Positions 10,021 to 46,050 of a stretch of DNA of 64,000 nt are shown here, in pieces. Source of the stretch: Takakia lepidozioides. Its lineage: Eukaryota; Plantae; Bryophyta. The first letter of the stretch is position 1; the number at the start of each line of letters is the position of its first letter. The position numbers were made by a program, and so were the translations under genes. Below the pieces are notes generated by a model that had not been told where the DNA came from, made no database searches, and worked only from the letters and a program-made list of their open reading frames with translations. Where the stretch lies: the NCBI GenBank assembly GCA_030704615.1, contig CM060734.1, positions 46,190,001 through 46,254,000 on the forward strand. Reading direction: 5' to 3'.

Positions 10021-10033
10021 GTTGATGTCCCCA

Positions 10034-21100: not shown

Positions 21101-21136
21101 TCCTAATTCCATAGTATTGTTCCAGCTTCTCCCCAT
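18111..21136 (-). CDS. PGSIP8: GT8-family glucuronosyltransferase-like protein PGSIP7/8, copy A (~502 aa). Exons 21136-20811, 20183-19928, 19685-19484, 19027-18880, 18687-18111
   Basis: NAYATMLYMGTPRDYEFYVA, VMLDADNLF (DxD), DGADQGF, KPWYWWSWP and a C-terminal TM region. Exon phases are consistent (1509 nt). Intron 2 is GC-AG. Confidence 0.93.
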
Positions 21137-23548: not shown

Positions 23549-24848
23549 CGCTGTGCACCACTAACTAGCATTTTTCGATTATTCTTTTTCTGATTTTTTT
23601 CTGATGTTAAGAAAAAAAACTAGCTCACTTGGATAGTGCACTGAGTGCCACCCAGATGATTCTGGTCAAATCCTGCTCCCTTCCCTTGGGCGGTGTCCCA
23701 TGAGCAAGCCTGGCACGCTTACGCTATGAAAGAGGTTAATTTCACCTCTCACTGATTTTTAGTAGAGGGAGTTTGGATATGAAGGTTTATTGGCTCTTCT
23801 TTATTCTACAGAGGAGAATATGTAGATGAAATTAGCAATTTCATTAAAGAGGGATTCATTTGAAGGTCCCAAAAAAAGACGCGGAAGGTGGGACGAATGG
23901 GTTGGCACGAAAAGAGGTGTGGGTAGGGATAATTTGTCTTGTGAGGTGTCAAGTAAAGCGAGAAAGAAGGAACTAGGTGTCAAAAATCAATGACAAAAAT
24001 CGCCCAGTCCCTGTAGTGCCTTCTTCTCCAACTTTCACCTCATCTCTTTGCTAAAAATTACTTCCATTATATGCCTTCTCCAGGTAACACCTCCCTCAGG
24101 TAACAACTCTTTTATTGAACAATTTATAAAAAATAAAAGGAGGAATTTTCAATTTTATTATGGATGAAAGTAGATTTCACTATTCACAAAGAAGATGTGA
24201 CCAACTACTTCTTACGTTAACAATAGGAATAATGTAAGAGCTTAATGCACGTGTGCGATCTAACGGTACTTTTGCTGGATTTAGGCCACAAGGGCATGGC
24301 GGGATGTTTGGAGGGGCCGTGCTAGATTGTGAGCAGCTCACGTGAGCAGAAAAAACTGTGCTCACAATTTTCGCCCTATTACCGTGGACCTATACCTGCT
24401 GGAAGCCCTATTACCGTGGGCTTCAAGAGTCGAAAAGGGAGCATTTTTTTTTAAGAGTGAGCATGCCAGTTAGCAGCAACATTGTGGAGTGGTTGATTGA
24501 TGTTTGAGTGTGTTTTGAAAAGGAGTTGGATGAAAGGAGTGGATGAACGATGGATGAATGTGCGATGAAAAATATGGATAAGAAAGAGAGTGGATGAATG
24601 AAAACGACGAATTCAGACCGGGGACCGCTAAAAGAAGCCCGAAAACACATCTTCAAACAAGCAAGGCAGAGAAACTGGTGCTTCATAAATGTCTGTGTTA
24701 AAACAATGAGTCATTCCGAAAAGGCATTTCCACTGCTATCTGATTTTGAGCCCAAAACTGATGCAGAACTGTCTATAAAGACATTAGCCCTGCTCTACAC
24801 AAAACCACCTCTGTCGCGGACCACAGGAGGGGGGAGATGAGAGGAGAC

Positions 24849-25890
24849 GAATGTGCCAAATTAAGATGGCGTTGACGCCACCTTGACGCCACCTTAATTT
24901 GGCTGGTCTTCTGGGCTGGAATTAAGCTCCAACAGGGGCTGGGAATTAAGGTGGCGTTGACGCCACCTTAATGTCGTGCCTGTTTCCCTCTACGAACATG
25001 GCTGCTCGCCTTGGCTTTTATTTAGTTTTTATTGTTTTTTATTGTTTTTGGGGTGAATGGTCAAGTTCCAACATGGGCTGGGAATTAAGGTGTCGTTGAC
25101 GACACCTTAATCTGGCACATCCGGGGGAAAAAAAAAGAAAAAAAATAATTTTATCTTTATTTTTTCGAATGTGCCAGATTACTGGTTGGTTTTTTGGGCT
25201 GGAATTAAGCTCTCACAGGGGCTGGGAATTAAGGTGGCGTTGACGCCACCTTAATGCCGAGCCTGTTTCCCTCTACGAACATCGCCAAGGTTTTTATTTA
25301 GTTTTTATTGTTTTTGTTTTTTTTGGGGGTGAATTGTCATGTTCCAACAGAGGCTGGGAATTAAGGTGTCGTTGACGACACCTTAATCTGGTTGGTCTTC
25401 TGGGCTGAAATTAAGCTCTAATAGGGGCTGGGAATTAAGGTGGCGTTGACGCCACCTGAATGCTGAGCCTGTCTCCCTCTATGAACATGACTGCTTGCCA
25501 AGGCTTTTATTTTGTTTTTTTTGTTTTTTTTAATTTTTTGGGTGAATTGTCATGTTCCAACAGGGGCTGGGAATTAAGGTGTCGTTGACGACACCTTAAT
25601 CTGGTTGGTCTTCTGGGCTGGAATTAAGGGATGGGAATCAAGGTGGTGTTGACGCCACCTTATTGCCGAGCCTGTTTCCCCATGACTGCTCGTCAAGGCT
25701 TTTATTTTGTTTATTTTGTTTTTTGGGGTGAATTGTCATGTTCCAACAGGGGCTGGGAATTAAGGTGTGGTTGCTAACACCTTAATCTGGTTGGTCTTCT
25801 GGGCTAGAATTAAGCTCTAACAGAGGTTGGGAATTAAGGTGGCGTTGACACCACCTTAATACCGAACCTGTTTCCCTCTACGAACATGGT
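24849..25890. repeat. Higher-order tandem array with ten 26-bp palindromes (TTAAGGTG[G/T]CGT-TG-ACG[C/A]CACCTTAA)
   Basis: Palindromes at about 24861, 24946, 25085, 25229, 25361, 25435, 25574, 25638, 25760 and 25834, mostly preceded by GGGCTGGGAA. The A and B variants alternate with a ~200-bp period. Confidence 0.92.
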
Positions 25891-25919
25891 AGCGTAAAGT
25901 TCTTCCAGAAAACACCCCA

Positions 25920-26966
25920 ACCTAGGACTTAATAGTAGTTCCAATTTTGAATTGCAACTGCTTCTCTCTATAGTCGGACAACTCACCTTTTGTCTCCATT
26001 GTCCCCCCACTGACTAGGGTCGGAAAGTGTTCATCCCAAAGCTTCTCTTCATCTTGATATCTGTTACTTTCCTGCTGCCACATCAGCAGTAACTTGTCAA
26101 AATCACTCCAAACCACCCCACATCCACCCAATGAGCTAACTTACAACATTCAATATGTAAATTCAGGGTTAAGTCTGATGAGATGGCAAAATAGGCTGAA
26201 ATAGGTTGAAGAAGAAGGTGCCCTCACCACATTGTCCTCAACCTTGTGTCATGACCCATGGAGGATTTAACTGACCATGCACCCAAGAGGACATCTTGTG
26301 TGTGCGAGGTGTGTGCTGCTTCCACAGGGAATTGTAAGCGATCTGGAGCTTGAAATCCAGCCCTCTTGGATGAATATGGACCCACACTGCTCCCTACTCC
26401 TTCTGCTATCCATGCCTCTGCACAAATCATGCATACATCTTTGCCTTGATGCTAGCAGCTGACAATAACACCCTAGAATTGTTCCAGCAAACTCCCCAAC
26501 CCTACTTATCACACTAATTCATATGCCAGCTGACTTGCGTCTACTTCCAACAGGCATTCACCTTTTTGCCTGGATTGTTCCACCATTGACTGGAGTCGGA
26601 ACCGTATTCATTCCAAAGCTTCTCCACATCTCTATTATCTGTTTTTCGATACTTTCCTGTCGACCACATTGGCAGTAACATGTCAAAATCATTCCAACAC
26701 CACCATAGATCCACCAACGAGCTAACTTGTAGAATTCAACATGAAAATTTAGGGACGACTCTGATAGTAGGGGAAAACAGGGTGAAATATGTTGAAGAAG
26801 GTACCTTCATTAGCAGTGGGTCTTGTTCTATCAATTGTGCTGCTGCCATTGCTGTTTCCAGTTGACCATCTACCCACTTGTAGCCGTTGTGCTATTGAAG
26901 AAGGTGCCCCCCCTTCCCCCATCATTTGATCATAGGTCTCCAAAGCCCCCATACCATGTCCCTGCT
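25920..26966 (-). pseudogene. Scrambled fragments of a PDF-motif/PPR gene
   Basis: DEEKLWDEHF.. and WWNNPGKK-type PDF halves, IHPRGLDFK, and PPR piece QGHGMGALETYDQMMGE. Homologous to 41.7-43.6 kb and 44.8-46 kb. Confidence 0.7.
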
Positions 26967-27870
26967 CACTACAACAGATTGCGGCTTTTATGACTCGCAT
27001 GGGTGCGCAGTCATGACAGATTTGTGGCAGAAATGCCATTTGCAGTCGTAAAATGCTTTTGAAGTCATAATGCAGGTCTGGAGAAGGCGTATATGTGACT
27101 GCATGGCTTCGGACTCTGCGCAACACAGGTCAAACATGTTTGACCATGAATATTGGCATGGCAGATATGACTACCAGTCACGGTCATGGCTACACTGGAA
27201 TGACGTGTGCATATTGCAAGACAGACATATGACTTCATGACTCTCACTCTAATGCATTATGCCAGATCATCACATGGATGAATCACTACATGACTACACA
27301 TGTCGACACATGCTTTTCTGGTTATATATATAATATATGAGTATTTATATCTTAAAAAAACGGAGACTCTTACCACTAGAATGAATTAAAAAAAACCCAA
27401 AAAAACAAAGATTTAAAAAAAATCACATCGGCTGGTAAGTGCACAGTGTGTCGCCCTTGTGGTTTGGGGTTCAAACCCGCTGCCCTTATCCTGTGTGTTG
27501 GATTGTTCGAGACGGTATGTCTTGACGTTGATCGTCCTGTAGATCTTATGGCCCATAAATGAAGGCGGGTGAATTTTTCCCCTCCTCAAGGGCTTGTGGT
27601 TTCTTTTAAGAAAATAAAAAAAATAAAAAAGGGGCTTTTAGGGTTTACAAAAAGGTTAAAAAACTTAAAAAGTTGCCCATCACGGTAGCGTGAACAGACT
27701 TAGAGCGAGCGGGAGGGAGAGAGAGAGCGGGCTGGGACTTAGAGCGAGCGAGCGAGCGGGAGGGAGGGCAAACATGCATGGGAGGCCCGCATTGGAGCAA
27801 CCTTCGCATCTGAAGCAAGCAGCCCTAGAAACGCTAGGATATGTGTGCGAGGAGGTTTCGGCTGGGAGCT
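26967..27870. mobile_element. CACTA element terminal fragment (one end)
   Basis: Starts CACTACAACAGATTGCGGCTTTTA followed by CATGAC/GTCATG subterminal motifs. Near-identical terminus at 43617. The internal boundary is approximate. Confidence 0.75.
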
Positions 27871-27874
27871 CGCC

Positions 27875-29085
27875 GTTCTTGGGAGAGTCAGCTTCGTCTT
27901 AGCAGGCCGTGTTTCAATCTGTACCCGCTCGGTCCTGATTTTACAGCACGGAGCAAAGCTGGCATGAGTTTCTTAAAGATCCTTCACGATGGTGGGACAA
28001 CCGCAATCGCAAGGTGTGGCTTTTTCTTAATGTACGATGTGAAGAAGTTTGTCCATCCTGCAAATGTGGGTTGTTGGCTCCTGTTAGTACCATGATTGGT
28101 ATTCATCCTGATGTTTACAAGGTTCTTGGGAGAGTTAGCTTGGTCTTAGCATGCCGTGTTTCAATCTCTGCCCACTCAGCTGTACCGTGGTGGTTCTCAC
28201 TAACCAATCCGACATTACCTAACTACAGACACAAGCAGCACACACAAGAGGTCCTCTTGGGTTCATGGTCAGTCAAATCCTCCATGGGTCATGACACAAG
28301 GTCGAGGACAATGTGGTGAGGGCACCTTCTTCTTCGACCTATTTCAGCCTATTTTGCCCTCTCATCAGACTCGGCCCTGAATTTGAATCATGGAGCAGAG
28401 CTGGCATGAGTTTTTTTGAAGATCCTTCACGAGGGTGCGACCGCAATCGCAAGGTGTGGTTTTTTTTTAATGTACGATGTGCAGAATTTTGTCCATCCTG
28501 CAAATGTGGGTTGTTGGCTCCATGATTTGATATTCTTCCTGATGTTTACAAGGTTCTTGGGAGAGTCAGCTTGGTCTTAGCAAACCGTGTTTCAAAGTCT
28601 GCCTGCTCAGCTGCACCGTGGTGCAGGTTCTCACTGACCAATCCGACATTACCTGACTACAGACACAAGCATCACACACAAGGTCAAATCCTCCATGGGT
28701 CATGACACAAGGTCAAGGACAGTGTGGTGAGGGCACCTTCTTCTTCGACCTATTTCAGCATGTTTTGCCCTCTCATCAGACGCCCTGAGATGCATATTGA
28801 ATTTTGTAAGTTAGCTCATTGCTCGTTGATAAGTAGGGTTGGGGGTGTTTACTGGAACAATTCTAGGCTGTCATTGTTAGCTGCTAGCAAGAAGGCAAGG
28901 ATGTATGCATAGATAGCTAAAGGATTTTGTGCAGAGGCATAGATAGCTGAAGGAGCAGGGATAGAGTGTGGGCCCAAATTCGTCCAAGAGGGCCGGATTT
29001 CAAGCTCCATTATTTCAGTGTCATCCATTCAGCCAGGGATTTCCTGGTGACATTGCCAAGGCTTTACTCGCAACACGATGCTTGT
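27875..29085 (+). pseudogene. Tandemly duplicated PDF-motif gene fragments
   Basis: YSTEQSWHEFLKDPSRWWDNRNRK|GT at ~27942-28013 and TNPTLP(N/D)YRHK exon pieces, repeated at 28.38-28.70 kb. Confidence 0.7.
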
Positions 29086-29090
29086 AAAGC

Positions 29091-30193
29091 GACAGGCTGT
29101 GGCGGGCTGTGACAGGCTGTGCCCTGTGGCCTGTGGGGCTGTGACGGGCTGTGATGGGCTGTGGCGGGCTGTAACAGGCTGTGCCTTGTGGCCTGTGGGG
29201 CTGTGACGGGCTGTGAGGGGTTGTGGCCTGTGGGGCTGTGACGGGCTGTGAGGGGCTGTGGCCTTTGGGGCTATGACCCCTGTGACCTGTGTGGGGCTAT
29301 GACGAGCTGAGGGGCTGTGACAGGCTGTGCCCTGTGGCCTGTGGGGCTGTGACGGGCTGTGACGGGCTGTGGCGGGCTGTGACAGGCTGTGCCCTGTGGC
29401 CTATGGGGCTGTGAGGGGCTGTGATAGGCTGTGACCTTTGGGGCTGTGACCCTGTGACCTGTGTAGGGCTGTGACAGGCTGTGGCCTGTGTGGGGCTGTG
29501 ATGGCTGTGACCAGTGAGCTGTGTGGGCCTATGCTGGTCTGTGGTGGCCCGTGTTGACCTGTGGACGGCCTGTGCTGACTCGTGGAGACACTAGTGGACT
29601 GCCTAAGGACTGGCATGTGGTCTTGAAGGCCGAATTTTGAAGCTCGTGGAGGGCGGTTTGAGGAGTATCTTCATGATATTCCCATGGTCATGCAAGTGGG
29701 GGAAGAGAGGAGAAGAAGAGTGTTGGGATGAGGGCATGTTGGGGTTAGGCATTGCTTTAGCTTCTCTTCCTCGTAGTTTCCACCCTCTCATTAGGCCAAG
29801 ACCTTTCCGTAGGTGGAGGCAAGAGTCAGTCCGGGTTTGGGCTGGGGTGTCCTTGCAGGAGCAACACCGTGGAGTTGTTTTTGGTGTGGGGGAGTTGTCG
29901 TTCTGATTTCTTGTGTTTGGATCCCCTCCATACCTGCATGCTTGACTGTGCGCCATGCTAGTTTTGTGTGGGCGCTTGTTCTTATAGGTGATTGGTCCGG
30001 ATTAGATCACCGGCCAGTCCTAGAGCATGCTGTCGATGGTGAGGCTGGGGTGATGACCAGCCAGACCATCATTGTTTCTTCTGTGGTGAGGTTGGAGGTG
30101 ATGACCAGCCAACCATAGGAGTGCTTGCGGTGGATGCAGGTACAGGTGTAGGCTATGTTAGGAACTTAGTATTCCAAACCATAAGCCGCAACA
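29091..30193 (-). repeat. Partial LTR (5' part) probably of the chromovirus family, including the GGCTGTG minisatellite (29091-29525)
   Basis: Minus strand begins TGTTGCGG at 30193 and runs into the same minisatellite, in the same orientation, as the LTR part at 8470-10020. Confidence 0.55.
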
Positions 30194-30465
30194 GGTTCTC
30201 TACCCGGTTACCTTGTGGAGAGGGGGTTATGGACATGTTCATGACATGTTGAGTGTCAACACGGAGGTGCCACTAGTTGCTAGGGACAGTGCCGGTTCGA
30301 GCACTAGCGATACTAGTGGGTACACGAGACGAGGTGTGCGGTTTAGGCCACCTTCACCTCCTGTGTCTTCTACGGAAGGTTCTAATTCGGATTGTGAATC
30401 AGGAGGACTCATACCGGCGGTGCAAGTTGTTTCTTTGCCATTGTTGTGGGACACAAAGGAGGAGA

Positions 30466-31950
30466 TGTATGGAGCTACCAAGGGGCCACGAAGGTACTAT
30501 GGGGCGGTGGGCACCATCGAGTTGGATGATTTTATCCAAGAGTTTGATAGTTGGTGTGATTTGCAGCAAATGCACAATCCACAACTATTTACGCCTTTCA
30601 TGGCATGGAAGGGGCTGTTTCAGCACCTTGAGGGGCCGCCTATGGATGATTACCATGAGTTCAGGCGGGGGCATGAGGTTGAGATCAAGGAGTGGAGGAT
30701 GTACTGGTCACCCGACTATGTCTCCATCACTAGGGGCACTAGAGCCACGAGGGCAGTGGCTACACCTGCCGCTGCACCGGCAGCTTCAGCAAGTAGCAGT
30801 GTGACTAGTGGGACTGGTGGTACAGTAGCTACGACGTCCACCCAAGCCACTACCGCACTAGCACTAGTACCCGTGCCTGCCTTCACCCTGTTGTGGAGTT
30901 CTTCGAAGAGTTGAGAGGGAACTACCAAGGGGTGAGGACAGAGAAGTTGCGGAGCTTGCAAGAGTTCCAACGGAAGCCGACCGAGAGCTTGAGGGAGGCT
31001 TTCACTCGCATGAGGCGCTTGATAAATGTAACCCAAGGGATTACGGAAGCTCAGGCAGTCCAATTCTGGTATGGGATATTGGACAAGGAGCTGAGGAGAA
31101 GGGTGCGGGATGCAACTCTCCTACAAGTGGCCCAACCCACCTTAGCAAATGTATTTTTGCTGGCAGAGCGGATAGAGCTCAACATGGTGGAGGAACGAGT
31201 GGTCATGGTGGGATTTGCTAAGGAGACACCACGGGGTAGTGGTGCTCCTAGCCAACCACTACCTCAACGTGCTCAAGGCAATAAGGGGGCTCAGGTGAAG
31301 CTCAGGGAAGGGCAGAGAGGACCTCAGATGCAGGGGTCTCTCCCTTCATTTGCTGGCCAACAACGGGCGGATGTGGTGTGCTGGACATGTGGAGGACCCC
31401 ATGTCAAGAAGGATTGCCCAGAGGGAGGCAAAGGGCTGGCACATGCACAGCCTGCACAGTTGCAGTGTGGGCATTGTGGCAAGCACGGGCATGGAGAGGC
31501 CCAGTGTTATGGTTTGCATCCTGAGTTGCGCCCAGGCCAGTTCCAAGGGAACAATGGTGGCCGGGGGCGAGGTGGAGCAGCCCAGAGAGGACGAGGTGGC
31601 CAGCCACGAGGTGCAGGCCAAGGGCAAGCTCAACATGGCAAGGATGCGGAGGTCAGGGTGTTGACTAAGGCATGGCCAACCGGCTTCAGCAGCTAGAGCA
31701 AAGGCTCGCTGCCATGGCTACAGCTCAGGTGGTACCGGCTCTAAGGCCGGATGGTCCACCTCCTGTTCCTGAGGGAGGAGATATGGGAGGCATGGGATTC
31801 ATGTGTGGAGCAGCACTACCACTAGTGCAGGTGGAGTCTGCTGTAGCCGTGACTCGAGGAGCAGCACGAGTTCCTGAGCCACGAGGTGCAGAGGTAGAGT
31901 TGGATCCACAGCGTAGGGAGGCAAGCCGTCAGGCTAGGCTTCCTCAGTAA
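30466..31950 (+). pseudogene. Gag with two zinc knuckles (frameshifted)
   Basis: LQEFQRKPTESLREAFTRM (gag), CWTCGGPHVKKDC, CGHCGKHGHGEAQC and an RGG-rich tract. Frameshifts near 30890 and 31660. Confidence 0.85.
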
Positions 31951-31956
31951 TTCACA

Positions 31957-32832
31957 TTGGCGGAGACAGTGTCGACGCCATCCATGGCACCTAGTTCTCG
32001 TCCGACTGTTACTGAGGCGGAGGGAGGTTACTATGCCATTGGGAGAGCTACACGGGTAGCATCACTACCTAGTGTTGCCAAGGCTACGGCAGCTAGTGTG
32101 CTACTAGGAGCGGCCACATCTGTGTACCAGGCTCCATTGTTCTCGGCTACCATGATTGTGATGCCGGGGGTAAGACCAGCTGAGGTGTTCAGGCTGGCAG
32201 CTACACTCTGTGAGAGTGAGCAGGTTACTTCATCTTCTGCGGAGATAGTGGGAGGTGTAGTGCCGGAGGGATCCTCGGATTTGAGGGTCAAGACTGCCAC
32301 GGCGGCGCCATGGCAAGCTGCAACTGCCAGGTTGATGGAGCTGCCAGCTAGGCCAGCCATTGAGCGCGCCATGGTGACACCTGGAGTTGTCATGTTAGAC
32401 AACCAGGATGGCATTTTCTGTTTGAGTGGACCGGCATACAAGAGGTACCGGCCACTGCGGGTCTTGTTGGACTCGGGAGCTCAGCCATTGATGCTAGGCA
32501 GAGCTGCTATTGCAGGCTTGGGCCTCACGGAGGCGGATATGGAGCTTTGTCCTTTCCAGATACAGACATCTCTGGGAGGATCGGAGCAGGCTCGGGGCAT
32601 GACACGGCGTGAGTTGGCTATCAGACTACGGCCGGATCACCCTACAGATGGCTCAGTGATGCGAGCCAAGGCCATTGTGACAGACGCAGTCTCAAACGAT
32701 GTCTTGGTTGGTGGGGCAGTGTTGTACCCCATGGGCTTCACCTTGGATTTTTGGGAGGAGTCAGCTTCCTATAGGCCTGCATGGCAGTCAGGGGAGGGCC
32801 GGCGTGTGCAGCTTCATGTGACGTTCATATGA
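31957..32832 (+). pseudogene. Retroviral-type aspartic protease region
   Basis: RVLLDSGAQPLML active-site motif with downstream DVLVG. Confidence 0.85.
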
Positions 32833-33183
32833 GGAGTTGCGGTTGCCCAGCGAGGCAAGATGCCGACACTAGCAGCATTCACAGCGGCAGTGAGTTGGCC
32901 TAGAGAGTTGCTTGAGGGCAACGCTCATTCAGAGGATGTGCCACCTCCGGGAGAGTAGGATGACATGTATGGTATGGCGGAGTTGCCTACCATGGTTGCT
33001 CAGACTCCATTGTGGGGCACGAGCAAGGATTTGCAGCGGGATGCTGATCGACGGGTGCAACAAGCCTGGGTGGAGGCTTTTGTACCTTCAGGAGAGGAGG
33101 AGAGTGCGGGGATTACACCAGGACCACCTCAGTTGTCTCCAATGGACACCACACCTATTGTGTGGCAGTATCCGGATGAAGGC

Positions 33184-34130
33184 ATTTGTCTTCTGGACTT
33201 GTTTGGCGGGATCAGCACCGGATTGGCTGCTGTGTTACAGGCAGGTGTACGAGTTCGGCGTTACCTGTATGTGGAGAGGGATGAGACTGCACGACGCGTT
33301 TCACTTCGCCATGTTGCTCAGTTGGTGCAGCGGTACCCTGAGTTGTTGTCGGTGTCTGCAATTCGTGGATATCAGCAGGCCTTGCCAGCAGATATTACAT
33401 TGCTGGGGGCGCAGGATTTGAAGCGGGTTGGCTCCATTGATCTGGTAGTGGCAGGTTGGCCCTGCCAAGGGCATTCATCAGCCGGGCATGGCAATGGATT
33501 GCGAGACTCGAGGTCGGGTCTGTTTTGGGAGATGGTGCGGGTTTTGCGCCACTTGCAGCTTCATCAAGCTGTATCTCCAGCATATATCTTGGAGAATGTG
33601 CCACTGATGGGCGATTCTTGGGCCAGGGTGATGGCCAGTGTGCATCAAGTCCGGTCGTGGCTTGGGTCAGCAGTGTTGCTAGATGCAGCTACAGTGGGGT
33701 CACGGGCTCATCGACCATGGCTATGGTGGACTAACTTGATGCCACCCGCACTGCTCAAGCGTGCATTTGATGGGGTGCAGCGGCCAACACATCTCACAGT
33801 GGATAGCATTCTGGATACAGGGAGGCAGTCTCAGCGTGTGAGACACGATGACCGTTCGCCTTTGGCAGTGGTCAACAAGGTGGGTCAACCACGAGCAGCA
33901 TTATCTACACTGCTCAGCTTCCCAGGATCGCATGCTTTCCGGGATAGTGGACCTGGCCTCCTGTGGGATGCTCAATTGCAGCAGTTAGTGGAGCCTAATG
34001 CTGACGAGCGTGAGTGGGCAATGGGTTTCTCCACTGGGACCACGGCGGTGCTTCTCTTTCTGAGGCGTCACGTCGTCAGGTGTTGGGGCAAGCAATGGAT
34101 CTAAATTGCTTGACCTGGATTATCAGCTTG
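33184..34130 (+). pseudogene. Retrotransposon-encoded C5 cytosine DNA methyltransferase domain, DNMT3-like, canonical motif order
   Basis: Motif I LDLFGGIS; II YVERD; III DI; IV DLVVAGWPCQGHS (Cys codon 33463-33465); V SGLFWEMVRVL; VI YILENV (33592-33600); VIII LLDAATVGSRAHRPWLWWTNL; IX EREWAMGF; X (after a frameshift near 34045) RRQVLGQAMD. Confidence 0.93.
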
Positions 34131-34559
34131 GCTATGGCTGAGCAACGAAGAGTGCGGAGTGCACTTCCCTTGACGGTCTCTCTGCCTACCGAGACGGTAC
34201 AGGCAGTGAGTGGGGGCGAGCAGGTGAGGACCACGAGGTGCAGGCCGCATCCATGGCACACGTGGGAGGTGCTCGAGGTTCAGAAGGAGTTGGCAGCCAA
34301 GGCGGCGGTGATGGATCAGTTTGGGGATTTTTCTCGGATTGAGGAGGTCCTCAAGGATGGGGTGATGGGGCAAGATGAGACATTGTCACTGACAGAGGAG
34401 GCAGTGGTCACTACTCAAGAGGTTGCAGCATAGCAACCACGGGACGCGTCTTCTACCTCTAAGCCTGCTTGACTCAAGGTTGCAGTCACGGAGGACAACT
34501 GGGAGCCTGATGTTGGACCTATAGTCACCGGAGAAGAGAGACGACGTATACGGCGGTTC

Positions 34560-35820
34560 TTGAGGGCTTACAGGATCTGCTTTGCCTTCAGTTTGAAGGA
34601 CTTAGGAGCACTGAAGGGTCAAGAGATTCGCATTGAGTTGGCCACTGACACGCCAATCTTTCGGAGACCCTATAGATACAGTGACATGGAGAGGTCTTTG
34701 ATTCAGATGAGGACTCAAGATCTCTGGGAGGCAGGTTTGGTGGAGCTCTCTGGTGGAGGTATGCTTCAGCACTTCAGCCACAGTGATGCCAGCCAAGATG
34801 GACGGCAATTGGACGGAGAGACGTATGTGCGGTGATTACCGGCCTGTAAATCGTCAGACCAAGTCCGATAAGTATGCCATGCCAACACCAGAGGAGATCT
34901 TTGATGCCATCGGGCATGCTAAGGTCTTTAGCACTTTGGATTTACGATCCGAATATCACCAGTTGTCAATCAAGGAGGCGGACAAGCAGAAGACTACATT
35001 CTGGGGGATCGATGAGCACGGCAAGGATTGCCTATATCAGTGGCGGTTCTTACCATTTGGCTTAAGAATGCTCGTGCAGAGTTTCAGAGAGTCATGGATA
35101 GGATTCTAGCAGGGGTGGACTTTGCTTGGTGCTACATAGATGACATCATCATCTTTAGTGTTACGATGGAGGAGCATGAGAGACACCTTCAGGTAGTATT
35201 GGAGCGCTTGAGAGCGCACGGATTGAAGTTGCATCCGGGGAAGTGCAAGTTTTTCCACAACCAGATTGAGTATCTGGGTCACATGATATATCCTGAAGGA
35301 TTGGGGGTACAGTATACTAAGGTAGAGGCCATTGCACAAATTCCACGCCCCACGGATGTGAGCCGAGTTCGAGCTTTCATGGGGTTGGCAAACTATTATA
35401 GACGGTTTGTCAAGGGATTTAGTACCATTGCAAAGGCTCTAACCAAGCTGACCAAGGTGGACCAGGAGTGGCAGTGGGAAGATGAGCAGGAACGAGCTTT
35501 TCAAGAGCTCAAGGCAAGGTTGACCTCGGCGCCTATCCTGAGACAACCTATCAGGGGGCGTCCCTTTCAGCTGCATATGGATTGGAGCATGCTGGGGCTT
35601 GGAGCGGTGCTCACACAGGTGGATGACACTTCAGTATCTATACGGCAATCTTTTCACCCTTGTCACGGATCACCAGCCACTCAAGTGGTTGATGGAGTCA
35701 GACAAGCTTACGGGGAAGCTTGCACGGTGGACACTCATACTCCAGGAGTATGACTTTCAGGTTGTGCATCGACCGGGTTTGGTCAATCGGGATGCGGATG
35801 GATTGAGTCGCAATCCATGC
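34560..35820 (+). pseudogene. Reverse transcriptase and RNase H of copy 2
   Basis: RMCGDYRPVN, STLDLRSEYHQ, LPFGL, CYIDDIII, HMDWSMLGLGAVL and TDHQPLKWL. About 110 bp of RNase H, retained in copy 1 at ~8095-8205, is deleted near 35628. Confidence 0.9.
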
Positions 35821-36129
35821 ATGAGCCAGCAGGATGACACTGGAGCTCGGTGGCATGGTGAGACGGACAAGGAGATGGTGCCGGGATGGCACGCATCTCC
35901 ATTTTTGTGTATCTTGGCATCGGGAGGTCAGGTTGGACCTACAACAGGGATGACTGTAGACGGAGTGTCTGAGGACCCTGAGGCTAGTGATGAGCCAAGT
36001 GGTGCCAGAGATATACATGAGGATTTGGCTGTGTTGGACTACCTCCGCACGGGAGACACGACAGCCACTGTGACTGCTAGGAAGAGGGATTGGATCCTGC
36101 AACGAGCCAAGAGGTTCAAGTGGGAAGGG

Positions 36130-37444
36130 ATACACCTACTTCGAGTGTGGGAGGATGGTCGGGTGAGGATTGTGCCTCACCCCACACAGCGTGCACGGTT
36201 AGTGCGGCATGCCCATGAAGAGTTGGGCATTTTGGAGTGCGACGCACTCACAGTTTACTGCAAGGGCAATATTGGTGGCGTGGTATGCATACAGAGGTGC
36301 AACAGTTCGTGGCTAGGTGCATGGTGTGTGACAGGGTGCGTGCTTCATTCAACACCCCTACACCACAGTTGCATCCTTACCAATCATGGGATTGGGCTAC
36401 AGGTGGAGTCTTGACTTCGCAGGACCGTTGCCACTGACTATGCGCCACCACAGATATGTGTTGGTGATGGTCTCCAAGTGGATTGAGTTGGTTCCATTGC
36501 CTGACAAGGCTAGTGAGGGGGCTGCGTATGCATTCTTGGATTGTGTGCTTAGCCGATTTGGTGCTCCAGCTGAGGTACTCACGGACCAAGGGAGAGAGTT
36601 CTTGGGGGGGTTTCAGGCTTTGTATGATAAAGCCTTGATAGACCACTGCACCACTTCTCGAGATCATCCTGAGGCCGATGGCTTAGCAGAGAGAGTTGTT
36701 CAGACGGTGAAGAGGGGTTTGCGCAAGTATGGCTTGCAGAAGGGACACCTAGGAGATTGGGATCTTCAGGTTCCTTGGTTAGCCATGGGCTACAGGTTCA
36801 GCAAACAAGCATCACTTGCCTCCTTCTCACCATATTTCCTTTTCTTTGGCCGAGAGCCGGATTTGCCTGCAGCCATTTGTAGGGACACTGCTCAAGTCCT
36901 TAACCTTGACGATCCGGATGTGTGGGTACGTGCATGTGATCAGCGTGCAGAGTTGTTCAAAAAAGTCATGCCCATGGCTTTTGAGAACCTTGCCATTGCA
37001 CAACACCGTGATACGTTGAGGTATGCCACTATACGTGGTAGAGGATATCGTCCTGGGGTTCGGAGGTTTAGCCCTGGTGACTATGTTTATTTGCAGCAGA
37101 CTGCTCCTATGACTCTAGATGTTACTGCAGGGCGTGTTATTCTGAGGGTTCGAGAGGTGTTGCCCTCAGGGGTCCTGATCTTGGAGGGTCGGGATGGCAT
37201 GACTTGGAAGAACCATGTGTGTAATTGTGCGCCATGTCACCTTCCCAATGTCGATGGCAGAGTTGACCCAAACTTGGCAGTGGTACTTGCAGGTTTGAGG
37301 TGCATGCTCTGTGGGTCTGCCAAAGGGGCAGCCACCATGCTGGTGTATGATCGATGCTCAAGGGGTTGGTATATGGGATGCTTGACACCACCTCTTGAGA
37401 AGGTTCCTGACGGAGATTGGTTGTGTCCACACTGCTTGGGATAG
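36130..37444 (+). pseudogene. Integrase with C-terminal PHD finger
   Basis: HHCC (HAHEELG...CMVC), D-D-E (SLDFAGP, LTDQGREF, LAERVVQT) and terminal CMLCGSAKGAATMLVYDRCSRGWYMGCLTPPLEKVPDGDWLCPHC. Confidence 0.9.
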
Positions 37445-37704
37445 TGGCAGTGGACATGACTGGAGGCAGCTAACAAGACATGGGAGGCCAAGCTCATAGA
37501 AGTCAATACATGAGATCCCAAGCTCAAGTTCACAGGTTGCAAGACGGCGACTAACAATGGGGCAACTCTTGCACCCGGCCTCGTGATCTATCGAGTTTGA
37601 GTGTAGTAGGGATAGTGGTGGAGGACTTAGTGAGGCTATGGTCACTATCACATCTTGTGGCTACCTGGACTTAGAGGGACCTAAGCACCAGCTAAGGGGG
37701 CGAT

Positions 37705-38375
37705 TGTGTGGACTAGTGACTGCCATAGTGGGCAGCATAGTGGCAGCCTAATGACTGACTAGTTGTAGCCTAGTGGTTGGACTAGTGGTATACTAATGTG
37801 TGGTGTGCACATGTGTTATGTGGTTTTGGACAGCGATGTAGTTTGTGTAGCGATATGTATGCGCACGACAGGTGTCAAGTTATTTTACCACTAGTGTAAA
37901 ACTAGCTAGGAAATAGCTAGCTTTTACATATTGACATTTGGGATTGGCCCAAGTGTCAATCCAGGGGTCAAGGCAGATTTAGGCCCTGGAGTGGTTATTT
38001 TCACGGCAAGTGCGGGAGGCTCATCTTTCTTGAGTTGAGCCTCAGCGCCTAGCTATGGCGCCGTAGTGTGGATTCCCCATGGCGTGGGGTGCACTTGGCT
38101 TGACTTGTATTTGAGTGATGAGGTTATATATGCATGAGTTTATGCTTCAGCTTTGTGAGCTCGCATGAGCTTGTGCTTGTATTCTTCTTCTTTATCATTG
38201 TGTGGACTAGTGACTGCCATAGTGGGCAGCATAGTGGCAGCCTAGTGACTGACTAGTTGTAGACTAGTGGTTAGACTAGTGGCTGGACTAGTGGTATACT
38301 AGTGTGTGGTGTGCACATGTGTTATGTGGTTTTGGACAGCGATGTAGTTGTGTAGCGATATGTATGCGCATGACA
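37705..38375 (+). repeat. 3' LTR of copy 2 (TG...CA, 671 bp) with ~170-bp terminal direct repeats
   Basis: 37705-37870 and 38199-38375 are near-identical and each runs TG...CA. The unit follows the PPT. Confidence 0.8.
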
Positions 38376-41285
38376 AGTCTCTTTGATTGACAATTGTGGT
38401 AACCAGATCGCAAGTCCAATGTGCTAAACATCTTCATATGCCCAATGGCATCAAAGATCTGCTTTGGAGTTGGCATGACATATATCTCGAACTTAGTCTG
38501 ACGGTTTACAAGACGATAGTCCCCACACATCATTCTTTCTGTCCAATTGCCATAGATTTCCTTCTTAGTTGGCGTAACCGTTGCCGAGGCATACTCCCCA
38601 CCTGACAACTCCACCAATCCAGTTTCGAACAACTCCATAGTCTGTGACTGGATCAAATACCTCTTCATGTCATTATACCTATAGGGTCTTTGAAATATTG
38701 GCGTGTCACTTGCTAAATCAATACGAATCTCTTGGCCCTTCAAACTCCCCAAATCCTTCAAACCGAAGGCAAAGTAATTCCTACAAGGCTCCCTTAGAAA
38801 TCACTAGATCCTCCGTCTATCTCCTCCGGTGACTGTAGGTCCAACATCTGATTCCCAATTGTCTTCAGTGACTGCAACTTTGGGTACACCAGGCTTGGAG
38901 GTAGGAGACGTATCCTTTGGTTGGGGGTTTGCTATTCTATCAGCTACCAGCCATCAGTGTGATGTGGATGCGCAAACGGCGGCCACATGACAATATAATA
39001 TTTTTTCTCAGGCTGCCCGTAATTGTATGCTTGGATTTGTGAGAAACAATAATGAAAAATGACACGGGATTGTATTGACATGCCACCTTTGGCTGCCGAA
39101 GGTGGAGGCTGAGCGGGAGAACATAAAGGTAAAAACGAAATAAATGGATGTAGAAAAAAAAATATATAAAAAATAAAACCAACATTGTACTGACATGCAC
39201 CTTTGGCTGCCGAAGATGGAGGCTGAGCGGAAGAACATAAAGGTAAAAATGAAATAAATGGATCTTGGAAAAAAAAAAAAACCAACATGAGATATGGACT
39301 TCTAATGTGGAAGAATTCTGCACGAACGTGGAAGAATTCTGCATGTTTTTAGCCGTTTTAATCTTTAGCTTGGATTATCGTATGCTACAGAAATGTCCAA
39401 TGATGCTAGTGAAAAATATATATATTTGTTGGACCTAAGTTGAACGAAGATAGCTCTTCTGTCCTTGTATAAGGTACTTTTCGCTTTTTGGAATGTGATC
39501 TTTTATTCAATTTCAAACTCTAATTTATTTTTATTTTTCCGGGCAGGTTCGTTGGGCAGATTGAAATGTTCTTGTTCACCTTCATTGACCTTCGTCACTG
39601 ATGGAATTGCGTTGGTAACTGACAAAATAGGTGCTCTCCTTTGGTTGTTAGATAACAACCTCTTGGGCCTTGTCCGCCCACTCTGACTGTGGCGTAGCCT
39701 CCACTTGCTCCGCCATAGCCACCTTGAGAACATCCGCTGAGTAAGAAACATTCTCAACCTCTTAAAAACCTTGGCCACGCCTCCAACTGTGTATGGCTCC
39801 CCCCACTCCTCATACTGTTGCTTGAGAGATCCAATGATTCTCTCCTTGCGCATCTCATCCCACATCTGCCATGGGTGTTTGCACCCCATGATCTTGTGCT
39901 CGCCCGCACTCACTGCCTCAACCATCCCGGTTGGCATGGAGGATGCACTATCCAATGGGAGTGCCGAAGTAGCCACCATTGCTTGCAATCTCCGTTGTCC
40001 ATGAGCCATGCACATGCCAATGACCCATGTCAAGCAATTTAGATCCATTGCTTGACCCAACTTTTGGCGGCATGGTGCATTTGACAGAGCTGGCACAGCT
40101 GTAGTGCATGTGACAAATCTTATTGCCCGCATTAGGCTCCACCAATTGAGCTATAGCACATTGTCCCAAATCAACCCAAGACCATTGTCTTGGAAAGCAT
40201 GAGACAAGGGGAAGCTCATGAGTGTAGACAAGGCAACATGTGGCTGCCCCACTCGATTGACCACCACCAAAAGTGGACGGTCATCATGTCGCACCCTCTG
40301 TGGTTGCCTCCATTGGTCCAAAATTCCCTCAACCGTGAGATTGGGTGGCTTTTGAATGGAATCGTATGCTCTCTTAACTAGCTCTGGTGGTGCAAGATGG
40401 GTCCACCATAATCGATGCGCGCGTGATCCCACCGCTGCTGCATCTAATAGCACTGTTGATCCAATCCAAGACCGCACCTGATGCACATTGGTCATCACCC
40501 TGGAACGAGAATCCCCCATAAGAGGAACATTCAGCTCCAGGATATAGGCTAAAGGTTGCACTTGCTTCGTCTGCAAGTCACGCAACACTCTCAACATCTC
40601 CCAAACAAATGCAACCTCGCATCATGCAAGCCATTCCCATGACCTGCGAGAGAGTGTCATTGGCAAGGCCATCTGGCTATCACCAAGTCAATGGAACCAT
40701 GCTGGTCCAAATCATCCGCCCCCAGCAAGGTAATGTCTGCTGGCAAGGCCTTTTGATACCCTTGAATTGTAGAGAGATGCAACAACTCAAGATACCGGTG
40801 TGTGAGCAAGACGATGTGGCATATAGAAATACGTCGAGCAATCTCATCCTTCTCCACATACAAGTACTTGCATACTTTAATCCATAGGTCTACTTGCAAC
40901 ACTCCTGCAAGCCCAGTGCTCATGCCTTCAAACATGTCTAGCAAACAAATCCCTGAGTCAGGTGGTTGCTAGGTAATGGGCATCGTGTCCAAAGGAGCTA
41001 ACTGAGGAGGTCAAGGTGATGTCAATGAACTCCCGTCACTCACCAATGGAAATGCCTTCTGCCATGCTTGGTGCACACACTGACTTGCTACTTGCTGCAA
41101 ATCCCTAACTGTATCCCACAGTGGAATATGAACAGGCACATGAGAAAACAACTCGGCCTTGTATGCCAATTGCCTCTCATCATCAGGTGATGGGCTATCA
41201 TCTGCATGGCTACTGCCCTCCAAGAGCTCACCACCCCAAGCCACCACCCCTAAGAATGCAGCCAATGTGGGCATCGTTAGAAGCA
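38376..41285 (-). mobile_element. Copy 3 of the DNMT Gypsy family (PR-DNMT linker, DNMT, N-terminal RT), more decayed, truncated at the copy-2 LTR
   Basis: LDMFEGMSTGL, YLYVEKD, IDLVIARWPCQ, AYILELNV, LLDAAAVGSRAHR, QKLGQAMDLNCL, RMMCGDYR and STLDLRSGYH on the minus strand, colinear with 32860-34980. Confidence 0.9.
38923..39636. mobile_element. Non-autonomous Mutator-like element inserted in copy 3
   Basis: Flanked by duplicated TCCTTTGGTT (38913-38922 and 39637-39646). Imperfect TIRs CTATTCTATCAGCTACCAGC versus rc CTATTTTGTCAGTTACCAAC. Internal ~115-bp tandem repeat. Confidence 0.75.
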
Positions 41286-41699: not shown

Positions 41700-43616
41700 C
41701 CTTGGGGGCTTGCATTACTGCCTCCACTTGGAAGTGATATGGAAGGTCCATGGTGACATCGTGAAAGCTGGAATTGTAGGGTTTGCCATTCTGAACACCG
41801 CCCTGGTGGACATGTATACCGAAGATGCAATGTTTGAAGATGCAAAGGTAGTGTTTGACTGTGGCTCAACGAGATGTGGTGTCGTGGAGTACAATGGTCG
41901 CATTGGCAGCAAGGCAAGGATGTATGCATGACTTGTACAGAAGCCGTGATAGCTGAAGGAGCAGGATAGAGTGTGGGTCCATATTCATCCAAGAGGGTCG
42001 GATTTCAAGCTCCAGATTACCTATGGATCCCTGTGGAAGGATAGCTACAAGAAACCTCCATGGGTAGATGGTTAGCTGGAAGCGGCAGCTGTAGCGGCAC
42101 AGTTGATAAAATCAGGCACCTCAACCATGACCACAGCTTCTAGAAGAGGATCAGGAGAGGGAGTCCACAATGCCTCTTCTGGCACTTATGGGCATGTGAA
42201 GATGTTTTATGAGGCAGGCAGACTGAAAGAGGCTCTACAGACTTTAAACCAAAAAGACATTTCAGCAGATGTAGATACGTATGTGACATGTCTCTTGCAT
42301 AAGTGCATCAAGATGAAAGGCCTAGAAGTTAGAAAGCAGGTGCACACTCACATTGTCCACATTGGATTCACACACAGAATGCCTCAACGATCTTTGATCA
42401 CGTGCACGGCAGGGGCGTGGTATGGAGGCCTTGGAGAATGTGGTGAGGGCACCTTCTTCTTCGACCTATTTCAACCTGTTTTTCCCTCTCATTAGACTCG
42501 GCCCTGAATTTACATATTGAATTGTCAAGGACAATGTGGTGAGGGCACCTTCTTCTTCGACCTATTTCAGCCTGTTTTGCCCTCTCATCAGACTCGGCCC
42601 TGAGATGCATATTGAATTCTGTAAGTTAGCTCGTTGGATGGATCTGTGGTGGTTTGGAATGACAATGACAAGTAACTGCCAATGTAGCAGCAGGAAAGTA
42701 TCCAAAACAGATTACAGAGATGAGGAGAAGGTGTGGAATGAATACTTTGTTGATCCCAATGAATGGTGGGACAACCGAGGCAAAAAGTTGAATGCCTGTT
42801 AGATGACAGAGAGCAGCAGACGCAATTCAACATAGGAACTAGTGTGATTGGTAGGTTGTCATTGTCAGCTACTAGCAACAAGGGCAAAAATGAATGCATG
42901 ATTTGTGCAGAGGCATGGATAGCTGAAGGAGAAGGGATAGAGTGTGGGTCTAGATTCATCCAAGAGGGCCGGACTTCAAGCTCCAGATTACCTGTGATTC
43001 CATGTGGATCAATAGCTACAAGAAACCTAAATGGATAGATGGTCAACTAAAGGCAACAGTTGCAACGGCACAGTTGATAAAATCAGGCACGTCCAGGCAG
43101 ACTGACAAAGGCTGTAGGTCTGGAAGCTGGAATCAGATGCTCAAGTGCTCACATTATCCAAAGTGGATTCATGCCAAATGTTTTTTCTACTCAACACCCT
43201 TGTCAACATGTATGTTAAGTGCGGGAGCATCATGGATGCTCGCCAAGATTTCTACAGAATGCCTCAACGATCTTTGATCATGTGGAATATAATGTTGGCA
43301 GGATTTACCAAGCATGGGTGTGGTAGGAATGCTTTGGCGAACTATGAGCAAATGTTGCACAAAGGGGTGAAGCCCAACCACATCACGCTTGCGCATGTTT
43401 GCAATGCGTGTACAAGCCTGGGACCTCTGGAAAAGGGGAAAGAGGTCCATGGTGACATCGTCAAAGCTGGAATTGTACTAGATGTCATCCTGAACACTCC
43501 CCTGGTGGACGTCTATGCCAAATGTGGGTGCATTAAGGATGCAAAGGGAGTTTTCAACACTATGGCCGAACCAAATGTAGTGTCATGGAACGCGATGCTT
43601 GCAGCGTATGCACAGC
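41700..43616 (+). pseudogene. PDF-motif plus PLS-PPR gene fragments (pseudogene mosaic)
   Basis: DEEKVWNEYFVDPNEWWDNRGKK, WINSYKKPKWIDGQL, and PPR motifs NTLVNMYVKCGSIMDARQDF..SLIMWNIMLAGF and NTPLVDVYAKCG..VVSWNAMLAAYAQ. Confidence 0.8.
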
Positions 43617-44790
43617 CACTACAACAAATTGCGGCTTTTACGTCTCTGTGTTATGACTGCAAATGCAGTCATGGAAGCCATTTACGACTTCCTGACTCTG
43701 CAGACGTAAAGACCTAGTCAGTTGTGACATGGCAGATATGCCTCTCCAGGCTGGCTGTCACGTGGCGCCAGAGCAGCTGTGGGGGTAGTCATACACGCTG
43801 GCTTTACTGAATGACTGAACGGACAATGTAGTCCATGTCAGCGGCTGTGCAAGAGTGGCACGTGCTCGATGCAGGAAATGACACGTGGTAGAGTTTAGCT
43901 CTCCATGACTGCGAACTATGACTACGGGTGTGCTAATCCGGTTGCAACACGTGGCGCGTTGCAGTTTTTACACGTGGTCCATCAGCAGATTGACATGTGT
44001 CATGATGGGTGTTTTTTTGGGGTGTATTGCTATTTTTTTACATATTTGTATTTCTGCCACGTGGTGTAGCACTATTGGAGAGTGAAAATAGATGTAGTCA
44101 TTATTATGACTATGATAGCAGTCATGTACATGTCTATTACAACAATGAAATATAATATATAATACAAAGAGAACAAGGCAGCAAGACATAACTGCAACAA
44201 GCTGAGCAAAACCAAGAGATTGCACACCATCTCTATTTACCAATCTATTTATCATTATCATTTTTGTTGCGATCTAAAAATACATTAAATAGTCGCATGT
44301 TCTCATGTGAATTATTTTGTCTAACTATAACACTTTGAAAAGTGTTCACCCAGAATCTTCTAACTACTCATGTATTCCATCAATCTGCAACCCATCAAAA
44401 ACGGCTTGCATGGCTTTAAGAATTACTACAGCAAGGACATTTGTTTGTTTTCCAAGTTCTTGCATAAGATGCACCAACCAATATTTCATTGTGAGACACT
44501 CACTCGCTATACTCCAAAGCATCCAGGGAAGGTCACTGAGCAACCTGCCAAGGCGGAAACAATTAAGAGAATTATCTAATACCATATATGAAAAACCAAT
44601 GCCAGTGTTGTTTATGGTAACTTCTATCCCATGTCCTAAACAAACCAAAGCAAAAAGGTTGGTGTGTATTGGCGAAGTCGTCAGATATTTCACAAAGAAA
44701 CATGCACTAAAAATGAAACCCAGGATGATAGGAAGGTCACTCACGTTTATACAAAGACATCTTGCCCATTGCCCAGCACCCTGCGTCACC
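43617..44790. mobile_element. CACTA element terminal fragment (other end)
   Basis: Starts CACTACAACAAATTGCGGCTTTTA, with ATGACT/CACGTGG subterminal motifs. The internal boundary is approximate. Confidence 0.7.
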
Positions 44791-46050
44791 CACACTCTAT
44801 CTCTATTCCTTCAGCTATCCATGCCTCTGCACAAATCAAGCATTCATCCTTGCCTTGCTGCTAGCAGCTGACAATGACAGCCTACATTTGTTCTAGGAAA
44901 CACCCAACTCAGCGTAGCACACTAGTTTCTATGCTGAATTGTGTCTGCTACTCTCTGAAATGTAGCAGGCATTCACCTTTCTGCCCCGGTTGACCCATCA
45001 GTGACTGGGCTCAGATAAGTTTCATTCCACAGCTTCTCCTCATCTCTGTTACCTATTTTTTGACACTTTCCGGTTGTCACATTGGCAGTATCATGTCAAA
45101 GTCACTCCAAACTAGATTCACTCAACCAACTAACTTGCAGAATTGAACATGTAAATTTAGGGCCGATTCTGATAAGAGGGAAAAACAGGGTGAAATGTGT
45201 TGAAGAAGATGCCTTCATTAGCAGGGCCTGATTTTATCACTTGTGCCGCTGCTCCCAGTTGACCATCTACCCATGCAGGTTTCTTGTAGCTATTGATCCA
45301 CAGGGAATCATAGGGAATCTTGTGCTTGAAATCTGGCCTTCTTGGATGAATCTGGACCCACACGAAATCCCTACTCCTTCAGCTATCCATGCCTCTGCAC
45401 AAATCATGCATACATCCTCGCCTTGCTGCTAGCAGCTGACAATGACAGCCTAGAATTGTCAAAGCAAACATTAGCAGGGAAAACAAGGTGAAATATGTTG
45501 AAGAAGGTACCTTCATCCTTTTCTCCATCATTTGCTTTCAGGTGTCCAAAGCCCCATCCCGCGCTCCTGCTCTGCACACCCTTCAAGCATCGCATTCCAC
45601 GACACCACATCTAGTTCAGCCATAGTGTTGAACACTCCCTTGGCATCCTCAATGCTCCCACATTTAGCATACATGGCCACCAGAGCCATGTTCAGGATGA
45701 CATCTGGTACAATTGCAGATTTGATGATGTCACCAGGGATCTCTTTGCCCTTTTCCAAGGCTGCAGTCGCACTGCAAACGCACACAAACGTTATGTCGGT
45801 GGCCTTCACCCGTTCCCCCATCATTTTCTCAAAGGTTGGAGCCTCCATCCCGCACCCCAGCTGTGCATACCCAGCAAGCATCGCACTCCACGACACCACA
45901 TCTCGTTCAGCCACAGTGTTGAACACTCCCTTTGCATCCTCAATGCACCCACAATTGGCGTACATGTCCACCAGGGCAGGGGCAGTGTTCAAAAGGACAT
46001 GTGGTAATTTGACATGCATTCACCTCCTGACTTGGCTATTCCCAACCCAT
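44790..46050 (-). pseudogene. PPR and PDF-motif fragments
   Basis: ORF 45528-46019 has two PLS-PPR units. ORF 45157-45363 reads IHPRRPDFKHKIPYDSLWINSYKKPAWVDGQL. Confidence 0.8.

Follow-up and report, generated by a model that had tools for sequence, protein, structure and literature searches.

A conserved stop codon follows the DNMT3-like methyltransferase of a Ty3/Gypsy retrotransposon family in Takakia lepidozioides and related bryophyte elements

A stretch of 64,000 nucleotides from the bryophyte Takakia lepidozioides (assembly GCA_030704615.1, contig CM060734.1, positions 46,190,001 to 46,254,000; from here: the window) harbors a decayed Ty3/Gypsy retrotransposon that carries its own DNA cytosine methyltransferase (DNMT). 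The element lies on the forward strand at about 29,000-38,375. Pfam profiles and the reading of its open reading frames (ORFs) gave the domain order gag, protease (PR), DNMT, reverse transcriptase (RT), RNase H (RH), integrase (INT) and PHD finger; the order gag-PR-RT-RH-INT, by which Ty3/Gypsy elements are recognized, was recovered in the domain search. Gypsy elements with a DNMT3 of their own are already known and were published for Klebsormidium (PMC5890265). Sequence comparisons indicate that in the family described here the methyltransferase is a family trait under purifying selection, and that the in-frame stop codon separating it from the reverse transcriptase is a feature of the family and not a result of decay. 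We propose, with a probability of roughly 0.55, that the enzyme is made at the level of Gag by means of amber readthrough, is packaged and methylates the newly made complementary DNA (cDNA) within the particle.

The methyltransferase domain and its family

The window domain is a DNMT3-like, intronless and non-permuted C5-methyltransferase. The original prediction, made from the DNA letters alone, had placed such a domain at 33184-34130 with the catalytic PC and ENV motifs, and had described it as DNMT3-like, canonical in motif order and free of introns; on all these points it was borne out. Profile PF00145 matches the ORF 32959-34101 (E 1.1e-12; 48.5 bits against a cut-off of 22 bits). Motif I (LDLFGG) begins near 33184, WPCQ has its catalytic Cys at 33463 and ENV its Glu at 33592, and the motifs follow each other in the canonical order. 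The domain is colinear with its relatives and therefore contains no intron. Of the motif wording quoted in the original prediction, LFWEMVRVL, DAATVGSRAHRPWLWWTNL and EREWAMGF are read in one and the same frame, while RRQVLGQA is present but belongs to another frame, past a break near 34050.

The best solved relatives by phmmer are DNMT3A/B/C. In a profile search against the PDB, DNMT3A scored highest with 86 bits, followed by DRM (50), DNMT2 (32) and bacterial enzymes (29), and DNMT1 gave no match in the same search. DNMT3A was also ranked first by Foldseek (E 5e-14), starting from an AlphaFold model of moderate confidence with a predicted local distance difference test score (pLDDT) of 70 that fell below 50 at residues 225-259, the target-recognition region. 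Identity between the element domain and DNMT3A is about 21% over the structural alignment. Among viral contigs, phage-type C5-methyltransferases were the only matches; they were partial, comprised the N-terminal part alone and reached E 1e-14 or weaker.

Relatives of the domain with 59-75% identity over most of its length occur in Marchantia polymorpha, Calypogeia fissa and Sphagnum troendelagicum; M. paleacea, Riccia sorocarpa, S. tenellum and S. fallax gave matches that were partial or weaker. Of 475 confirmed metagenome loci, the 80 best were evaluated for flanking domains; many of these are near-duplicates that probably come from one host group. A protease precedes the DNMT in 61 of 66 loci whose flank is long enough, and an RT follows it in 59 of 67. 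The window element is covered by contigs from four public runs, at a depth over the DNMT similar to that over gag and RT. Run X1 gave 121,549 placements on the window, most of them at 90-99% identity, which indicates many diverged copies of the family, contig depth not being a copy number.

Between the two family copies present in the window, the ratio of non-synonymous to synonymous substitutions (dN/dS) in the DNMT was 0.19 over 114 codons and 0.13 over 146 codons. Compared with 13 close loci, the DNMT had a proportion of non-synonymous differences (pN) of 0.18-0.31 with saturated synonymous sites (pS), near the values of the RT (0.14-0.22) and mostly below those of gag and protease. Within the Sphagnum-like loci the median dN/dS was higher (DNMT 0.54, RT 0.36, INT 0.58), as expected because dead copies are compared there. 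In a set of 65 elements, among which kin share ancestry, distances in the DNMT were correlated with those in the RT (Spearman 0.70). Congruence of the two trees was partial, with 12 of 24 well-supported DNMT splits recurring in the RT tree. All trees were built without plant host DNMT3 or DRM sequences. In the midpoint-rooted DNMT tree of 69 picked sequences, the window elements are sister to a clade from liverworts and Sphagnum.

The possibility that a host DNMT3 retrocopy had inserted just once into a local element, which the original prediction had itself raised, is refuted by these data and we assign it next to no probability. The placement of the domain is shared by 59-61 loci, by named bryophyte proteins and by Klebsormidium; the domain is under purifying selection, its distances correlate with those of the RT, and contigs cover it to about the same extent as gag and RT.

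A second decayed, multi-copy family of DNMT-bearing Gypsy elements, with about 40% DNMT identity, is represented by the loci L034, L036, L040 and L050 and some 28 similar ones. It has split repeats and 4-bp duplications, and no conserved stop between DNMT and RT.

The stop codon behind the methyltransferase and its proposed use

The original prediction had assigned the methyltransferase to the pol region. It does lie between the DSG protease and the YIDD reverse transcriptase, but it closes the ORF of gag and protease: at 34431 the frame holding the end of the DNMT meets TAG CAA CCA, and the RT carries on in the same frame. A stop stands at the homologous codon in all 27 loci of the clade, defined by a DNMT identity of at least 50% and an RT downstream; it is TAG in 22 and TAA in 5 of them, and the next codon is CAR in 25. 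One locus, L026, is unbroken and has exactly two long ORFs, which abut in frame and encode 1369 and 1047 amino acids. The first (976-5085) comprises protease and DNMT, the second (5086-8229) RT, RNase H, integrase and PHD finger. The second window copy reads TAA CAA CCA at the same junction. Among the 61 variable sites that related contigs show at 34290-34620, none of the 40 best supported falls within 34414-34440. An opal codon near this junction, at 34470, is private to the window copy. In Marchantia, the proteins P0003, P0004 and P0010 end 110 residues past the DNMT core, and when these ends are compared with gene model P0012, in a stretch that is off-frame there, the sequence TAG CNA CNA is suggested at the junction.

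The stop context resembles UAG-CAR-YYA of tobacco mosaic virus (TMV), with TAG CAA CCA in the window and TAG CAG TTA in L025 and L026, and in each case the ORF behind the stop continues in frame. In tobamoviruses, UAG-CAR-YYA acts as the type I readthrough signal (PMC3542737), and it functions in plant reporters (PMC2754532). Retroelements need a Gag:Pol ratio of about 20:1, and in-frame stops are used by the retroelements SIRE1, Tca2 and murine leukemia virus (MuLV) (PMC2194720). Because of this resemblance the methyltransferase is likely made at the level of Gag, and we consider it quite probable that RT, RNase H, integrase and PHD finger are made via readthrough of the amber codon.

Translation would then yield mostly Gag-PR-DNMT and, by leakage, a minor fusion that includes RT-RH-INT-PHD. 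The element protease would free the DNMT domain inside the particle, where the cDNA would be the nearest substrate since it is made there. The catalytic Cys is kept in 67 of the 68 other aligned sequences, and DNMT3s of Symbiodinium elements methylate CG in yeast (PMC5890265); we consider it quite probable that the domain is catalytically active in intact family members. Given an active enzyme, we favor the cDNA as its substrate, at somewhat better than even odds. A new copy would thereby enter the genome already methylated and be handled as host heterochromatin, which is the likely gain for the element, and the PHD finger of the integrase would likely help to choose the insertion site.

Several points weigh against this proposal. 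Many of the 27 loci are near-duplicates, probably from one host, and the conserved stop therefore corresponds to about four independent lineages. The analysis of variable sites covered 40 of the 61, and the Marchantia stop was deduced from protein ends. Apart from the two window copies, L025 and L026 are the only ones, among the 27 loci, with an exact CAR-YYA hexamer; in the Sphagnum-like clade the sequence is CAA CCC, departing in the last base, and an ATG lies two codons past the stop. A related clade with about 40% identity lacks the conserved stop, and 17 of its 24 in-frame loci are open across the gap, so that Gag-level expression of the DNMT is not required across the lineage. An in-frame stop also need not mean simple readthrough, as the Tca2 junction shows promoter activity as well (PMC2194720). 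CpG depletion is not specific to the element, the observed/expected (o/e) ratio being 0.50 in the element and 0.53 in the window. Finally, the DNMT of the Klebsormidium element was inactive in yeast, a result that its authors call inconclusive (PMC5890265). No significant RNA structure was found 3′ of the stop in 7 sequences (z +0.64 to -1.38, using crude shuffles).

As an alternative to readthrough, RT-RH-INT-PHD could come from a spliced or separate transcript or from reinitiation, with the DNMT still expressed together with Gag. The TAG might act as a splice acceptor, the Sphagnum-like clade offers its ATG just past the stop, and a promoter at the Tca2 junction and splicing in Copia are precedents (PMC2194720). 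However, the five bryophyte gene models that fuse the DNMT to downstream pol domains (four from Marchantia, one from Sphagnum) each do so at a different place, as annotation artefacts would, and in the window copy the stop is not closely followed by an ATG. Moreover, within a linker of otherwise low conservation, CAR follows the stop in nearly all loci, and CAR-YYA is matched by two lineages through different bases. We therefore regard splicing, a separate transcript or reinitiation as unlikely. Much the same low probability applies to an active enzyme whose main site of action is the nucleus, where it would act on the integrated element, on its repeats or at the insertion site and so limit the element's own activity or remodel local chromatin. 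Synthesis at the Gag level would exceed by far what a single cDNA needs, the integrase bears a chromatin-reading PHD finger, and insertion-site effects and a host-beneficial slowing are among the options listed in PMC5890265. Yet as part of a fusion with Gag and protease, the domain is bound up with particle assembly, and in the chlorophyte relatives, where the domain is located between RNase H and integrase, it is likewise part of a packaged polyprotein.

A further reading dispenses with DNA methylation and has the domain kept for another role, such as nucleic-acid binding, RNA methylation or that of a decoy for partners of the host DNMT3. The inactivity of KnitGypsy-Dnmt3 on DNA in yeast (PMC5890265) and the low confidence (pLDDT <50) at which the target-recognition region was modelled are compatible with such a role, but motifs I, IV, VI and VIII are almost invariant across the 68 other aligned sequences and the closest solved enzymes are DNA-acting DNMT3s, which makes it improbable.

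Structure of the window copy and its surroundings

The features of the element and of the second family copy are compiled in Table 1. The gag region is 56-78% identical to the N-terminus of Marchantia Mp4g09160, and its match to Retrotrans_gag is weak (E 0.002). Neither the PHD finger nor the split terminal repeats had been mentioned in the original prediction.

Table 1. Positions of element features in the window; E values refer to Pfam profiles
Feature	Position	Strand	Remarks
Candidate 5′ end and leader	29019..30464	+	TGTCA at 29019; 10-bp tandem array 29091-29586; covered by multi-copy contigs
gag with zinc-knuckle-like Cys/His motifs	30465..31650	+	Frame changes near 30884 and 31650
Aspartic protease, LLDSGAQ, Asp codon 32470	32362..32829	+	Asp_protease_2 E 0.008, below cut-off
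DNMT3-like C5 cytosine methyltransferase	33184..34130	+	Canonical motif order; frame change near 34050, before motif X
Amber stop in CAA CCA context, end of gag-PR-DNMT (ORF1), likely readthrough site	34431..34439	+	
Reverse transcriptase with frame changes, YIDD 35133-35144	34482..35600	+	PF00078 E 1e-17
RNase H	35503..35850	+	Internal deletion of ~113 nt at 35626/35635
Integrase, H2C2 zinc finger and rve core	36219..37270	+	PF17921 E 1.6e-13; PF00665 E 9e-8
PHD finger at the integrase C-terminus, then ORF2 stop	37300..37444	+	PF00628 E 7e-7
Terminal repeat B, copy 1	37703..37870	+	Ends in GACA, joined by GG to TGTCA; 90% identical to 38197-38375
Terminal repeat A, 3′ copy	37873..38196	+	Assigned by position in the A-coding-B-A-B layout of relatives
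Terminal repeat B, copy 2; 3′ end of the element (...GACA)	38197..38375	+	Contig cover falls beyond 38399
Second, older, diverged family copy	38379..41277	-	DNMT region 39848-41277; stop and CAA CCA at the junction; insertion; RT 38379-38923

The A-coding-B-A-B layout is complete in 9 of 29 self-compared loci, many of the others being interrupted by contig ends. The ends of these relatives read TGTC...ACA, and a 4-bp target duplication is perfect in 6 of 9, has one mismatch in 2 and is absent in 1. On the 3′ side the window element reads B-GG-A-B. The original prediction had given its span as 30194..38375; the 3′ end at 38375 was confirmed, while 30194 is no terminus. Multi-copy cover runs on to about 29,000, loose contig ends are found at 29005-29009 and TGTCA at 29019 is the strongest candidate for a start motif, so that the 5′ end is probably near 29019. 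A 5′ copy of repeat A was not found upstream, either by blastn or by local alignment (score 58 against up to 66 for shuffled sequences). None of the TGTCA candidates at 28869, 29019 and 30254 gives an exact target duplication; the one at 28869 comes within a one-base mismatch but was rejected, as it lies inside another repeat. No tRNA genes were detected in the window, nor was a primer-binding site identified.

Related arrays of a 10-bp unit (GACGGGCTGT; 62-bp higher order) occupy 9577-10027 and 29091-29586, both downstream of a TGTCA motif (9569 and 29019, respectively). Clusters of short, interrelated repeats spaced by about 200-590 bp in both orientations extend over 24800-29010 and 41700-46000, and one such cluster is cut at about 29010, where it adjoins the likely 5′ end of the element.

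The window copy is dead, as originally predicted. Relative to its relatives, it has private stops at 31948, 32830 and 32956 in addition to the opal codon at 34470, and about eight frame changes, near 30884, 31650, 34050, 34760, 35058, 35630, 36227 and 36376. The deletion within RNase H is apparent from a gap of 34 nt where L001 and L026 have 147 nt. At 33718 the copy encodes Trp, whereas 66 of the 68 other aligned sequences carry the second Arg of motif VIII.

In the second copy, an insertion of about 0.7 kb (38923-39650, minus strand) follows directly behind the junction stop; it is flanked by 11-bp direct repeats and contains a 114-bp tandem duplication (39069-39277). Another fragment of the family, at 4985-8489 on the minus strand, consists of the RT end, RNase H, integrase, PHD finger and a portion of the 3′ repeats. 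Possibly this fragment represents the missing 3′ half of the second copy, from which about 30 kb of nested insertions would separate it.

A different Gypsy pol with an RT about 40% identical is located at 11138-12900 (minus strand). With a CpG o/e ratio of 0.93 over 11500-13000, against 0.53 for the window, it shows almost no CpG depletion and is possibly young or unmethylated. A repeat of about 3 kb is present in three copies (18105-21106, 49576-52602 and 54125-57129) that are 81-93% alike, one of them inverted.

Significance and comparison with known systems

Why some retrotransposons carry an enzyme of the class that silences them has been a question since 2018, partly because Symbiodinium and Klebsormidium are hard to work with. 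The relatives in Marchantia polymorpha move this question into a model land plant for which methylation mutants are available, and the conserved stop leads to the specific prediction that the methyltransferase is made at the Gag level and RT and integrase by leakage. DNMT-bearing Gypsy loci can also inflate DNMT3 counts in gene surveys of bryophytes. The wider range over liverworts, peat mosses and green algae points to a capture that was older and of broader extent than the event in the 'K. nitens lineage' that is in print.

We found no description of DNMT-bearing Gypsy elements in land plants, bryophytes included, or in chlorophytes, or of the junction stop, in the literature, though subscription papers, Repbase, theses and supplements may differ; this result includes the accessible parts of PMC12344493, PMC9033089, PMC6317226, PMC10714607, PMC10952607, PMC13398078, PMC11982613 and PMC6453930. 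The accessible text of bioRxiv 2021.02.12.428880 has no matching passage on such elements, and the word 'Marchantia' is absent from the main text and the examined supplements of PMC5890265. Two later papers speak of 'streptophytes' for Gypsy-DNMT3, for which PMC12344493 cites the 2018 paper.

The closest described system is KnitGypsy-Dnmt3 of Klebsormidium nitens, a Gypsy element with a DNMT3 and DIRS-like split repeats (de Mendoza et al. 2018, PMC5890265). Both have an intronless, non-permuted DNMT3 under purifying selection (Ka/Ks <0.2 in KnitGypsy-Dnmt3) and split repeats. A relationship is supported by the K. nitens protein KFL_009030040 (P0389), which has the order PR-DNMT-RT-RH-INT of the window element and a DNMT with 45% identity over 233 amino acids; kinship between the two elements is likely. 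In contrast to the window clade and its conserved stop, the DNMT of KnitGypsy-Dnmt3 is stated to share an ORF with RT and RNase H (PMC5890265, peer-review file), and the hosts of the named close relatives of the window element are land plants. In the RT tree (42 sequences, one weak outgroup) P0389 joins a chlorophyte-type clade with an ultrafast bootstrap (UFBoot) support of 98, and in the DNMT tree it stands apart from the bryophyte clade, together with unnamed sequences. A single capture shared with K. nitens is favored by identity and anatomy, but not by the tree positions, which rest on one K. nitens sequence and a weak outgroup.

A large related clade has the order RT-RH-DNMT-INT-PHD (P0292, P0051, P0401, L066:8001-8888). 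It includes 44 proteins with the full RT-RH-DNMT-INT, and its named members come from the chlorophytes Chromochloris zofingiensis, Monoraphidium neglectum and Chlamydomonas eustigma. As these elements form one clade in the RT tree, the DNMT appears to have moved within the polyprotein. It is conceivable, although we place it somewhat below even odds, that an ancient green-plant Gypsy lineage with PHD finger and split repeats captured a DNMT3 once, that chlorophytes, Klebsormidium, liverworts and mosses kept it while it moved within the polyprotein, and that the bryophyte branch has it in front of a leaky amber codon of the TMV type, its particles being loaded with a de novo methyltransferase at the level of the capsid protein and pre-methylating their cDNA. 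If this is true, Marchantia would be a tractable model with many unannotated DNMT3-like loci beside the host enzymes. Some DNMT-bearing elements of the algal type have extra domains, namely a G-patch (P0292, P0353) or chromodomain plus PHD finger (P0369). Locus L066 contains a 1507-bp stretch (1-1507, 6557-8066) duplicated at 100% identity, a recent tandem copy or an assembly artefact. Gypsy-7a_cRei of Chlamydomonas is likewise a Gypsy element with a PHD finger and with long terminal repeats (LTRs) drawn in subparts; it differs in that, in the accessible text, no methyltransferase is listed and the PHD finger is placed between RNase H and integrase (PMC9940879).

SymbioDIRS-Dnmt3 and SymbioLINE-Dnmt of Symbiodinium also are retroelements with C5-methyltransferases, and the enzyme of the DIRS version is of the DNMT3 type and the one active on CG in yeast (PMC5890265). 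However, they have a DIRS or LINE (long interspersed nuclear element) backbone with tyrosine recombinase or endonuclease and no DDE integrase, and they are considered independent captures (PMC5890265). The EpiLTRs of Cymbomonas and Euglena resemble the window element in being LTR elements that combine a DNMT with a chromatin-reader domain, but their DNMT is sister to DNMT4 and is accompanied by DAM and chromodomains, instead of the DNMT3 and PHD finger found here (bioRxiv 10.64898/2026.05.21.726589). Protein P0049 (1417 amino acids), which combines a Dam-type domain (PF05869) with a C5-methyltransferase (PF00145) and shares 31% identity with the window DNMT, recalls such dual-methylase EpiLTRs. 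Host DNMT3s of non-flowering plants, such as PpDNMT3a/b (PMC6453930), and animal DNMT3A/B are of the same catalytic type and motif order, but are cellular genes.

With SIRE1, Tca2, MuLV and readthrough of the TMV type, the family shares an in-frame amber codon with CAR-YY between two polyprotein blocks (PMC2194720, PMC3542737, PMC2754532). The difference from the three retroelements lies in what precedes the stop: in the window element it follows protease and methyltransferase, both of which would be made at the level of Gag.

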